A stretch of DNA of 64,000 bases from Aulosira sp. ZfuVER01. Its GTDB lineage: Bacteria; Cyanobacteriota; Cyanobacteriia; Cyanobacteriales; Nostocaceae. The DNA lies in NCBI GenBank assembly GCA_034530615.2, contig JAVRCV020000007.1:106766-170765 (forward strand), read 5' to 3'. The notes under the pieces were generated by a model. It was not told the origin of the DNA. It was given only the letters and a program-made list of their open reading frames with translations, and ran no database searches. This document shows, piece after piece, positions 6,244 through 11,614 of this stretch. A program made the translations under genes and the position numbers. How positions within the stretch are numbered: position 1 is the stretch's first letter; every line of letters begins with the position of its first letter.

Positions 6244-7050
6244 TTGAGTTACGACAACGCTTGTAAATATTTAGCTGAACAGTACCCAGCAGATTTTGTG
6301 CGCTGGTTACTAGGAGTAGACGCGCCACAAATTGAAATCTTAAAAACTGAACTGACACTAGAACAAATTCGTGCAGATTCTGTGACATTTCTGCAAGCAG
6401 CTAACAAAATTTTACATATCGAATTTCAAACATTAACGATATCCGATCCGCCACTTAACTTCCGAATGCTCGATTATTCGGTGAGGTTAAAGCGTCAATA
6501 TCGATGTCCTGTAACCCAAGTAATCATCTTTTTACAGGAAACTACTAACGAAATGGCTTTTGCTGAAGAATATCGAGACGACACAACAATTCATCAATAT
6601 CGGGTAGTTAGATTATGGGAGCAAGATTCAGCAGCGTTTTTGGCAAATCCTGCACTGTTACCTCTAGCAACATTAACCAGAACTGAATCACCTCAAGGAC
6701 TGCTTGCACAAGTTGCCGAACGAGTCGCTACAATTCCAAATAGAGAGCAGCGACAAAATATAGCTGGTTGTATAGAGATTTTGGCTGGATTGCGGTTTGA
6801 GAAGGATTTAGTTCAGCAATTTTTACGGGAGGATATTATGAAAGAATCTGTAATTTATCAAGATATCGTTCAAAAAGAAGCATTGAAATTGATTAGCCGT
6901 ATGCTTAAACGGCGTTTTGGCGATATTGATGCATCATTATTTGAACAAGTTCGGAATTTATCTGCTGAACATTTAGAAGATTTAGGAGAAGCGTTGTTTG
7001 ATTTCTCTGAATTTGCTGATTTGGTAGCTTGGTTAGAAGAGCATAATTAA
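6244..7050 (+). CDS. Rpn-family PD-(D/E)xK nuclease-like protein with C-terminal DUF4351
   Basis: YDNACKYLAE, IRADS, LHIEFQT, RMLDY, NPALLPLA; C-terminal RRFG...LEDLGEALFDF. TTG start. Confidence 0.85.
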   Translation: MSYDNACKYLAEQYPADFVRWLLGVDAPQIEILKTELTLEQIRADSVTFLQAANKILHIEFQTLTISDPPLNFRMLDYSVRLKRQYRCPVTQVIIFLQETTNEMAFAEEYRDDTTIHQYRVVRLWEQDSAAFLANPALLPLATLTRTESPQGLLAQVAERVATIPNREQRQNIAGCIEILAGLRFEKDLVQQFLREDIMKESVIYQDIVQKEALKLISRMLKRRFGDIDASLFEQVRNLSAEHLEDLGEALFDFSEFADLVAWLEEHN

Positions 7051-7082
7051 AATGCTCATTTAAATACAAGTATTTGCGTATT

Positions 7083-7748
7083 ATGTCAAAGTTAACAGAA
7101 ACTTTAGATAAAATTCTGAATTGGTTAGAAGAACATGAAGATTTAGACTTTGCTCGGTTTGAATCATTACAACCTGGACTTACATATAAAGAAATTGAAC
7201 AAAAATTAACTGATTTATTACCTTTGCGGTTACCCAAAGAAGTTTATGAACTTTATCAATGGGGTAATGGTGCTTGGTACGACGAGGAAGATTGGGCACG
7301 ATTTTTTGATAATCGGACTTTTCTTTCTTTAGAATCTGCGCTGGATATGTATTTTGGTTTAACAAAATTAGATAAAGAAGCAGATAAATTGGAATTTCCA
7401 TCTATGTGGAGTGATACTTGGAATACTCGATGGTTTCCGATTTTCCAAGAACAATATAATACAGGTTTTTATGCAGTTGTTCTTGATGAAGCACAAAAAG
7501 AAACAACGCCAGTATTAGATATATTTTTGGAAGATTGTGATGATGAGCCTTTTATCATCTATCCAAGCATAACTAAAATGATACTTGCAGAAGCAGAGCT
7601 TTATGAATCCGGTTATTACTTGCAGAAAGCTGAACTCAAACAGTTAAGCTATGACTTGCAATCAAGATATAGATCAGCTTTAGATGAAGAGGCAAAATAT
7701 ATTCGCCAAAAATATCAAGATATGCACATCAAGGTTTGGCGACAATAA
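7083..7748 (+). CDS. SMI1/KNR4 (SUKH) family protein
   Basis: LQPGLTYKEIE...RLPKEVYELYQWGNG...FLSLE...WFPIF; AT-rich. Confidence 0.8.
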   Translation: MSKLTETLDKILNWLEEHEDLDFARFESLQPGLTYKEIEQKLTDLLPLRLPKEVYELYQWGNGAWYDEEDWARFFDNRTFLSLESALDMYFGLTKLDKEADKLEFPSMWSDTWNTRWFPIFQEQYNTGFYAVVLDEAQKETTPVLDIFLEDCDDEPFIIYPSITKMILAEAELYESGYYLQKAELKQLSYDLQSRYRSALDEEAKYIRQKYQDMHIKVWRQ

Positions 7749-7892
7749 AAACTAACAAGCACAGTATTTTTACAAAAAAATCAATAGCTGGTTAACATAC
7801 TTAATCTTTCACTTCGTGCAAAAACACTCAGAAAAAACTTTGCGCCTCTGCGCCTTTGCGTGAGATTATTATCCCTGCTGCTACACAAGATA

Positions 7893-8738: not shown

Positions 8739-8760
8739 ACGAACCGCAGAGGAGGACGAA

Positions 8761-9081: not shown

Positions 9082-9387
9082 ATGATTCCAGGGGAAATTA
9101 TTACGCAAGATGGAGAAATTGAATTAAATGCTGGTCGTGAAACTATTAAACTACTAGTAGCAAATACAGGCGATCGCCCAATTCAAGTCGGTTCGCATTT
9201 TCACTTTTTTGAAGTTAACTCCGCCTTAAACTTTGAGCGAGAACAAGCGCGAGGAATGCGCCTCGATATTCCCGCCGGGACAGCTGTCCGTTTTGAACCA
9301 GGCGATGAAAAGGAAATTAATCTCGTCCCGCTTGTTGGGAGTCGTCAGGTTTATGGGTTTAATGGCAGAGTTAATGGAGGACTGTAA
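9082..9387 (+). CDS. ureB: Urease beta subunit
   Basis: MIPGEI...[17 protein letters not shown]...RFEPG. Confidence 0.99.
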
Positions 9388-9398
9388 GGAAGAGATTT

Positions 9399-9864
9399 TT
9401 AACGCAGAGGGGCGCAAAGGGAAACGCAAAGGTACGCGGAGTTAGAGTTTGTTTGCTACACGCTTGATGCCTTGTTTGAGGTGGAGAACGTTAAAGTTGA
9501 GAATCAGACCGAGTTTACAATTTGTGAGTTTCAGATAAGTTAAAAGTTGTACGGAGTGAATTGGGTGAATAGATTCTACAGATTTAACTTCAATAATTAC
9601 TTTATTTTCTACTATTAAATCTAATCGATATACACAATCTAATTCAACTTTTTCATACACAAGCGGTATTGGAACTTGTTTACTAACATGAAATCCCCTC
9701 TTCTTCAATTCGTAATACAAACACTCCTCATAAGCTGACTCCAACAACCCTGGCCCCAACGCCGTATGCACTCTCATCCCACAACCAATTATCGCCCCAC
9801 TTAAATCATTCTCATCCATCCTCCGCGAACCTTTGCGCCTACCTTCGCGCTCCTTTGCGTTTAA
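9399..9864 (-). mobile_element. Inverted-repeat-bounded GxxExxY cassette inserted between ureB and ureC
   Basis: IRs at 9401-9441 and 9821-9861 (34/41 identical by hand alignment) abut the ORF stop and start. Confidence 0.6.
9442..9819 (-). CDS. GxxExxY protein (PD-(D/E)xK nuclease superfamily)
   Basis: [46 protein letters not shown]. Confidence 0.93.
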
Positions 9865-9898
9865 ACTCGATTCTAACCTCACTTACAAGGAATGTAAT

Positions 9899-11614
9899 AT
9901 GCCTTACAAAATGTCTCGCCGTGCCTACGCAGAAACTTATGGGCCAACAGTAGGCGATCGCGTCCGGCTTGCTGATACAGAATTATTTATCGAAGTAGAA
10001 CAAGATTTCACCACCTACGGCGATGAGGTGAAATTTGGTGGCGGTAAAGTAATCCGTGATGGGATGGGACAATCCCCGATTTCTAACGCTGATGGTGCTG
10101 TAGATTTAGTAATTACAAATGCTTTAATTCTTGATTGGTGGGGTGTAGTTAAAGCCGATATTGGTATTAAAGACGGCAAGATTTTTAAAATTGGTAAAGC
10201 GGGAAATCCTTATATTCAAAATAATGTAGATATTATTATTGGCCCGGGAACCGAAGCCTTAGCAGGGGAAGGTATGATTCTCACGGCTGGCGGAATTGAT
10301 AGCCATATTCATTTTATTTGTCCGCAGCAGATAGAAGTTGCGATCGCCTCCGGTATTACGACGATGATTGGCGGTGGTACTGGCCCAGCTACAGGTACGA
10401 ACGCCACTACCTGCACCCCCGGCCCTTGGAATATGTACCGGATGTTGCAAGCTGCTGATGCTTTTCCTGTGAACTTGGGATTTTTAGGTAAAGGTAACGC
10501 CAGCCAACCCCAAGGACTTATTGAACAAGTAGCGGCTGGTGCAATCGGGTTAAAGCTGCATGAAGACTGGGGAACTACACCCGCAACCATTGACACTTGT
10601 CTCAGCATAGCTGATGAATATGATGTCCAGGTGGCAATTCACACCGACACCCTCAACGAAGCCGGATTTGTCGAAGATACGATCGCAGCTTTTAAAAATC
10701 GTGCCATCCACACCTACCATACTGAAGGTGCAGGCGGTGGACACGCGCCAGATATTATCAAAGTTTGTGGCGAGGCGAATGTTCTCCCATCTTCCACCAA
10801 CCCCACACGCCCTTACACCCTCAACACTTTAGACGAACACCTGGATATGTTGATGGTATGCCATCACCTCGATCCAGCGATCGCGGAAGATGTGGCCTTT
10901 GCCGAATCCCGTATCCGTAGAGAAACAATCGCCGCCGAAGATATTTTGCACGACTTAGGTGCATTTAGCATGATTTCTTCTGATTCTCAAGCGATGGGAA
11001 GAGTAGGGGAAGTAATAATTCGCACCTGGCAGACATCTCATAAAATGAAGGTGCAACGGGGAATCCTTAACCCACAAACAGAAGAACAAAGGGCTGATAA
11101 TTTTCGAGCAAAAAGGTATGTTGCTAAGTACACCATAAACCCAGCCATTACCCACGGAATTGCTCAGTATGTGGGGTCAGTAGAAGAAGGGAAACTTGCA
11201 GATTTATGTTTATGGCAACCAGCGTTTTTTGGCGTGAAGCCAGAGATAGTTATTAAAGGTGGAATGATTGCATGGTCGCAAATGGGCGACGCTAACGCCA
11301 GCATTCCCACACCGCAACCAGTACACATGCGACCGATGTTTGGTAGCTTTGCTGGAGCGCGTCATGCTACATCATTAACTTTTGTTTCTCAAGCGGCGTT
11401 AGAAAAGGATATTCCCAGTCAGTTAGGTTTGCAAAAATCGGCCGTTGCAGTTTCCGGGACACGCCAATTAAGTAAACGGGATTTAAAGCTGAATGATGCG
11501 CTACCTCAGATTGAAGTAGATCCAGAAACCTATGAAGTCAGGGCCGATGGCGAATTGTTGATTTGTGAACCTGCGACAGTTTTACCAATGGCCCAAAGAT
11601 ACTTTTTGTTCTAG
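9899..11614 (+). CDS. ureC: Urease alpha subunit
   Basis: [44 protein letters not shown]. Confidence 0.99.

Follow-up and report, generated by a model that had tools for sequence, protein, structure and literature searches.

GxxExxY genes lie between inverted heptamer arrays that are also dispersed in intergenic DNA: a cassette in a cyanobacterial urease operon and its likely relation to repeat-plus-nuclease systems

GxxExxY genes lie between inward-pointing arrays of CRCNRAG-type heptamers, and the same arrays are dispersed in the intergenic DNA of the genomes that carry these genes. This partnership of gene and repeat is real and widespread and, apparently, undescribed; we infer its mechanism below. 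Our starting point was a 470-bp unit (outer tags included) in a 64,000-nucleotide stretch of DNA from Aulosira sp. ZfuVER01 (contig JAVRCV020000007.1, positions 106,766 to 170,765), here called the window, to which all coordinates refer unless a contig is named. We put the probability at roughly 55% that this unit belongs, as the member with the gene, to a repeat-plus-nuclease system that resembles REPIN-RAYT systems and works with a different chemistry.

The cassette and its surroundings comprise the following features.

9082 to 9387, plus strand: ureB, urease beta subunit, host flank (gene annotation).
9396 to 9441, plus strand: left (downstream) arm, a T-rich tag (9396-9402) and four CGCRRAG heptamers at 10/12/10 spacing; subfamily A of the dispersed repeat, outer boundary taken from the ends of dispersed copies.
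9442 to 9819, minus strand: GxxExxY gene (TIGR04256, PF13366), 125 aa, predicted PD-(D/E)xK fold (profile search, homolog conservation, structure model, dN/dS of about 0.10).
9821 to 9865, minus strand: right (upstream) arm, with its TTTAAA tag at 9860-9865 and four heptamers directed at the ATG; predicted to be the 5' leader of the gene (repeat search, ends of dispersed copies).
9870 to 9898, minus strand: candidate GxxExxY promoter, -10 TAGAAT at 9875-9870 and a weak -35 at 9898-9893 (consensus match), in the ureC leader and outside the arm.
9899 to 11614, plus strand: host flank ureC (urease alpha subunit), to whose 5' end the cassette remains linked in relatives.
7838 to 7860, minus strand: lone subfamily B arm of three units at 8/8 spacing, where ureD starts (repeat search).
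8740 to 8751, plus strand: single heptamer with a subfamily C tag at the ureD-ureA junction, where some relatives have three units.

The GxxExxY gene is read on the minus strand, from 9819 to 9442, within the spacer between ureB and ureC. An earlier note on this DNA had described two arms of four heptamer units each, at 9401-9441 and (as reverse complement) 9821-9861, identical at 34 of 41 positions, with the 125-aa ORF filling the interior. We confirmed both points: the four CGCRRAG heptamers of each arm are spaced by 10, 12 and 10 nt, the left arm abuts the stop codon of the gene, and a single base separates the right arm from the ATG. A repeat finder extended the match between the arms to 53 nt at 79% identity. 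Dispersed copies in contigs of other organisms have alignments ending at 9396 and 9441 for the left arm and at 9821 and 9865 for the right one, and the repeat unit thus includes the outer T-rich or TTTAAA tag. The similarity of the two arms is typical for the repeat, as 19% of the 351 pairs among the 27 such arms of this genome reach 34/41. A search of the arms against Rfam gave no match. The minus-strand frame 9442-9882 stays open through the right arm up to a GTG at 9882 (146 aa), and some database GxxExxY proteins are called at this length, probably from over-extended starts. Further upstream, a DUF4351-containing protein (6244-7050) and an SMI1/KNR4 protein (7074-7748) are encoded between groEL and ureD.

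The protein is a clear member of its family, a putative nuclease of the PD-(D/E)xK fold. It matched the GxxExxY profile TIGR04256 with 151.3 bits (cut-off 35) and PF13366 (PDDEXK_3) with 149.2 bits (cut-off 22), while the Cas4 profile PF01930 scored 17.8 bits, under its cut-off of 22.7. Residues E27, D67 and K79 were invariant in 94 homologs, and E77, Q91 and Y95 were conserved in at least 90% of them. The structure model (pLDDT 95) placed residue 8 in the first helix, and its top fold matches were 3s1s (Z 8.0, rmsd 2.6, 91 residues aligned) and 4ic1 (Z 7.9, rmsd 3.2, 99 residues aligned), with many further PD-(D/E)xK members at Z 5 to 7; these Z values are middling. Among the matches were the PD-(D/E)xK nucleases BpuSI, Cas4 SSO0001, HsdR and Hjc. 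Foldseek returned no match for the model at E 0.001, a sequence search of the PDB none for the 125-aa protein, and an Atlas search GxxExxY clusters only. The earlier note's statement that the cassette holds no transposase or integrase agrees with the Pfam, NCBIfam and fold searches, which gave PD-(D/E)xK only and no DDE, tyrosine (HUH/Y1) or serine transposase or recombinase domain.

The family is large, with 7,478 representatives at 50% identity reaching E 1e-10, and the entry for GxxExxY/PDDEXK_3 in a survey of the PD-(D/E)xK superfamily reads "Unknown" (PMC3424549). With the queries used, relatives were found in 4 of 72,556 plasmid records and in 7 viral contigs. The median dN/dS was 0.105 (78 pairs of 13 genes, after 3 gapped genes were dropped). 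These data and the distribution described below show that the gene has stayed intact under purifying selection, with one copy per lineage and a long residence. Proteins of 260 to 295 aa with two tandem GxxExxY domains also exist and may be natural single-chain dimers.

Next, we looked into how GxxExxY genes and inverted arrays are associated across genomes. The sample consisted of the best 80 of 596 loci and is therefore biased towards the query; 75 of these loci were non-cyanobacterial (Bacteroidota, Chloroflexota, Proteobacteria, Planctomycetota, methanogenic archaea and others), and 72 of them had usable flanks. The earlier note had suggested searching the flanks of all GxxExxY genes for such arms: inverted flanks with a local alignment score of at least 30 were present at 45 of the 72 non-cyanobacterial loci and at 4 of 114 other ORFs in the same neighbourhoods. 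Under a strict motif defined from the present genome, inverted arrays stood on both sides of 20/72 GxxExxY loci vs 0/114 control ORFs. The same strict arrays were found at 43/54 and 25/30 loci in two cyanobacterial sets, vs 0/22 and 0/10 controls, and the polarity of the arrays around GxxExxY genes was biased inward. Five more distant viral homologs had no heptamer arrays, and two of the five had other inverted flanks, scoring 76 to 87.

Gene and repeat also co-occur at the level of whole genomes. In a sample of the phylum, a GxxExxY gene was present in 24 of 31 array-rich genomes and in 9 of 120 others (hand count). Within the host family, all 27 genomes with the gene lineage had at least 7 A-type arms (median 27, up to 113, counts that include up to two arms of the cassette itself), compared with 17 of the 94 genomes without it (median 0). 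Because related genomes are not independent, these counts are descriptions and not tests. Among the 17 arm-rich genomes without a full cognate gene, 10 were checked; 2 had gene fragments at contig ends, and in 8 the gene was not seen.

In the present genome, we counted 112 arrays of at least 3 units, compared with 1 in a shuffled genome, and 105 of the 112 lay outside ORFs of at least 120 aa. They fell into subfamilies A (four units, 27 arrays), B (8/8 spacing, 18) and C (8-9 spacing, 54), with 13 others. The genome has four GxxExxY genes. Inverted arms bracket three of them, A arms at the urease copy, B arms at a second paralog and C arms at a third, in each case with the spacing of a dispersed subfamily. 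The fourth has a related, CACGGAT-like repeat on its flanks. When 106 arrays were classed by their neighbours, with a partner required to have at least 2 intact units so that decayed partners were possibly missed, 72 were solo, 15 were in close inward pairs, 11 in outward pairs and 8 in long inward pairs; six of these last eight were the arms of the three cassettes. A constant polarity of the arms around host genes was considered and rejected, as the 45 arrays lying at most 40 nt past a stop codon were divided into 23 forward and 22 reverse.

We also evaluated whether protein and heptamer vary together. The set comprised 161 distinct proteins, 98 of which had enough units for a majority base call. 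Residue 8 was the best of the 125 protein columns for base 5 of the heptamer, a choice made after the full scan. K, Y, N or H at residue 8 was accompanied by A at base 5 in 45/45 loci, and G, T, E, D or Q by G in 41/47 loci, with R and S mixed. Several clades show this pattern anew, and there are two orthologous sites where a change of residue 8 between alleles goes with a change of heptamer in both arms. A natural pair at the frhB-like site has G8 with CGCAGAG and K8 with CGCAAAG. The window's own clade is the exception to the rule, with G8 and mixed A/G at base 5. Five independent pairs could be drawn on supported branches; a mean of 3.4 to 4.2 of them agreed with the rule and none opposed it, which is not significant (sign test, median P value = 0.125 to 0.25). 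Recombination within the ORF could also hold the N-terminus and the two arms together with no selection acting. Covariation at residues 124 and 125 was discarded because their codons overlap or abut the arm.

A candidate -10 box, TAGAAT, lies 10 nt before the first heptamer of the right arm, so by consensus match the predicted transcript would start at the outer end of that arm. The promoter scan relied on consensus matches only and found 3 sites vs 1.1 expected. TAGAAT or TAAAAT stands at the same distance in 14 of 16 antisense orthologous loci. Rfam family RF02514 (5' ureB sRNA) matched 10054-10330 on the minus strand with 98 bits, antisense to the 5' part of ureC and 150 nt upstream of the antisense promoter candidate; this match probably reflects the conservation of urease coding sequence.

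The history of the cassette was traced through its relatives. It is present at 11 of 30 ureB loci, in 7 genera, with one copy decayed; at the remaining loci, the ureB-ureC spacer measures 27 to 1284 nt and its content is unrelated. For PCC 7120, a review places an unknown gene between ureDAB and ureC (PMC6737895). The gene lineage has one match in each of 27 genomes, at two sites in all: 16 copies are antisense beside ureC, one is in the ureB-ureC spacer in the opposite orientation, and 10 follow one other large gene. In the tree, the 17 genes at the urease site make up a single clade (support 95/98) nested among the genes at the other site, which indicates one move followed by one flip or re-insertion. 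These results show that in the Nostocaceae, the lineage moved once and flipped once as an arm-bounded unit. The earlier note's reading is weakened in that the cassette is an ancient resident of many genera and no fresh insertion. Relatives often have extra DNA on the ureB side of the left arm, with the cassette still joined to ureC. The TTTAA of an arm can supply the stop codon of the host gene at both sites, though not in this window.

The same note had looked to empty ureB-ureC alleles to define the ends of the insertion, and this search was negative. No clean pair of filled and empty alleles was found among 30 ureB-ureC loci (7 of them without a long ureC match within 3.3 kb) or among 30 loci at the frhB-like/methionine gamma-lyase site. 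No target duplication was definable against the empty alleles compared, the empty ureB-ureC spacers being too diverged to align. Comparison of five sites with solo or doublet arms, each against up to 5 relatives, gave no precise insertion ends; at two of the five, the arm was present in all aligned relatives, so arms are often simply inherited, and for one further arm region no ortholog was found for comparison. TTTAA stands at both outer ends of the cassette, but it also begins solo arms, and TTTAAA is palindromic. At the orthologous site, a genome 96% identical in the flank carries a gene-less inverted doublet whose gene was lost through a 4-nt microhomology deletion, and similar gene-less remnants occur at other sites. 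Arms also travel as passengers, as A-type arms occur inside a MITE-like element: it is about 150 nt long, has terminal inverted repeats of its own and holds one such arm in its middle. Two genomes of one genus have many near-identical copies (20 and 12 matches, some of them the arm alone), and this genome has one diverged copy (contig C33:16829-16956). An exact-pattern search with one pattern in 121 genomes found no arm-less copy of the element.

Both sites are busy in other respects. The ureB-ureC spacer (9388-9898) is a hot spot in which relatives have several unrelated genes, or none. At the frhB-like site, a GxxExxY cassette is present in some genomes, and GGCAGAG-type or other heptamer runs and GTAG-like palindromes are found there in others, which suggests that several repeat systems compete for the same junctions. 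A gene-less doublet at one site is shared by five genomes in which the arm subtypes differ, suggesting conversion or replacement in place.

The association of gene and arms, the dispersal of the arms and the covariation of residue and base are what one would expect of a protein that recognizes the repeats, and they suit an analogy with RAYT/REPIN. We consider it probable that the protein binds the heptamers through its N-terminal helix, at sites that the 10/12/10 spacing would set on roughly one face of the DNA helix, and that this binding limits its own expression, since the upstream arm overlies the predicted transcription start. For the next steps, we see about even chances: the Cas4/RecB-type active site would nick or cut at bound arms, and host repair would then copy the arms, and rarely the entire cassette, into AT-rich gene boundaries, with deletion of the gene leaving hairpin doublets and solo arms. 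The earlier note had proposed that the nuclease recognizes or mobilizes its repeats as RAYTs do theirs. The family-wide association, the dispersed arms and the covariation favor that proposal; the preponderance of singlets (72/106) and the origin of at least one doublet as a deletion scar count against it. A broader claim, for which we would give slightly less than even odds, is that these systems represent a third chemistry for a repeat partner, in which a minimal Cas4/RecB-fold nuclease with a retunable N-terminal residue controls itself via the arrays and disperses them to gene boundaries, in bacteria and archaea alike.

The dispersed arms could also have arisen without any action of the nuclease on them. 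The protein might bind the arms for self-regulation only, or as a host-serving or addictive factor, with host recombination moving the cassette passively and the dispersed arms being scars left by former cassettes or passengers of other elements. The conserved -10 box just outside the upstream arm (14/16 loci) is in keeping with this, and so are the microhomology deletion that left a gene-less doublet, the similar remnants at another site, the amplification of an arm within the MITE-like element, the use of only two sites in 27 genomes and the readiness of the ureB-ureC spacer to accept many unrelated inserts. However, a gene that moved once does not easily yield the arm numbers seen per genome (median 27, maximum 113), and neither the same-type downstream arm nor the selected, intact nuclease site is explained; we regard this reading, the main rival, as unlikely but worth keeping in mind. 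Chance flanking of an unrelated small gene by a common intergenic repeat would draw on the abundance of the repeat (112 arrays here), yet it is already refuted by the lack of strict inverted arrays at all three sets of control ORFs, and three paralogs in one genome are each bracketed.

The two arms might instead serve as RNA, as in 23S rRNA intervening sequences, pairing on the host transcript and hiding or excising the insert so that the gene would be harmless in operons. The earlier note had raised such a loop-out on the mRNA, and the stem is physically possible: when 9385-9900 is folded, the minimum-energy structure and the centroid structure are each closed by a stem of the two arms (z -3.80, with 0/100 shuffles as good), and cassettes are located at gene junctions. 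What speaks against a function of this stem is that complementarity within a cassette (34.2/41, 9 cassettes) is about the same as between cassettes (33.7, 72 pairings), that the heptamers are conserved while the spacer bases vary freely, that most arms have no partner and that some genes keep one arm only. As judged from sequence, the arms thus carry no sign of selection for mRNA pairing, and we hold this reading to be improbable. Still less probable is a free-standing homing endonuclease that would cut a fixed site wherever the cassette is missing, such as the ureB-ureC junction or a gene-less hairpin, and would be copied into it by gene conversion. Its fidelity to sites, its patchy presence at ureB loci, the different alleles with different arms at one site and a median dS somewhat under that of ureC (0.70 vs 0.97) would be expected of such a gene; against it, no conserved target was evident in the unrelated spacers of the cassette-less alleles, the distances of gene and ureC correlate as expected from co-inheritance (Spearman 0.46, 16 loci), and the dispersed arms go unexplained.

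The repeat-plus-nuclease reading can be set beside several known classes of element. Insertion sequences and MITEs have one ORF between terminal inverted repeats and gene-less derivatives, and the cassette is like them in both respects. It differs in lacking a DDE, tyrosine or serine recombinase domain, in being present as one copy per lineage per genome, and in having made one move and one inversion across a host family; no target duplication was seen against the empty alleles compared. Lacking a transposase domain, the cassette is no insertion sequence. I-Ssp6803I of cyanobacteria is a PD-(D/E)xK homing endonuclease, a small selfish gene with fixed sites and a patchy distribution; the cassette gene likewise stays at fixed sites and is patchy, but it has no intron or intein and is repeat-bounded, and no conserved empty target was found for it. 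ORF-carrying 23S rRNA intervening sequences hold a small ORF in a stem formed by their flanks on the host transcript, whereas the cassette lies antisense in an mRNA spacer and its two arms do not covary.

The cassette resembles REPIN-RAYT systems in that its gene is present once and passed on mostly by vertical descent, in that the repeats beside this gene are also dispersed outside genes, in that a genome has several types of gene and repeat, and in its long persistence. In the REP/REPIN literature, RAYT is a single-copy and mostly vertically inherited nuclease gene flanked by dispersed intergenic repeats, and the REPs of P. fluorescens are mostly doublets (PMC3116915; bioRxiv 10.1101/2022.05.22.493013; PMC3733652). 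The differences are that the cassette protein has a predicted PD-(D/E)xK fold and RAYT is a tyrosine (HUH) transposase, that the cassette repeat consists of heptamers that are not palindromic, stand in phased tandem arrays and have no GTAG or CGTC tag, that cassette arms are mostly singlets, and that no excision product of the cassette was seen among contigs of other organisms aligned to the locus. Fold and catalytic layout (E27, D67, E77-x-K79, Q91-x3-Y95) are those of Cas4/RecB/lambda-exonuclease nucleases (PDB 4ic1, 4r5q), with weak Cas4 profile matches; the protein differs in having only 125 aa, in scoring below the Cas4 cut-off and in being framed by repeat arrays of its own. No cas genes were present among the neighbors examined. 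The relevant sections of a paper on Cas4/RecB-type nucleases do not mention PF13366 (PMC5704561). A literature search, covering mainly the main texts of non-subscription papers, found no description of a pairing of GxxExxY genes with repeats.

The GxxExxY family thereby gains a concrete candidate for its substrate, another for the residue that sets specificity, and a group of hosts that can be cultured, which makes its function directly testable. If the protein spreads the arms, this would account for repeats that number tens to hundreds per genome in the intergenic DNA of filamentous cyanobacteria, and it would mean that REP-like systems also arose with an unrelated enzyme. Should the broader claim of a third chemistry be true, a family of thousands of clusters would have a function and a common class of intergenic repeats an origin. 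A site-specific nuclease of 125 aa whose specificity can be switched simply would have practical appeal too.

The small dispersed repeats (SDR) of Nostoc, reportedly described by Elhai et al. in 2008, are said to be short, intergenic repeats of heterocystous cyanobacteria to which no partner protein was assigned. The heptamer arms are likewise short repeats dispersed in intergenic DNA, but they form arrays with a partner protein gene; overlap with published SDR lists is possible. Inserts of about 21 to 27 nt, which we take to resemble the SDR, interrupt arms at five loci in relatives and at contig C39:22244-22290 of this genome, and in one cassette they interrupt both arms.
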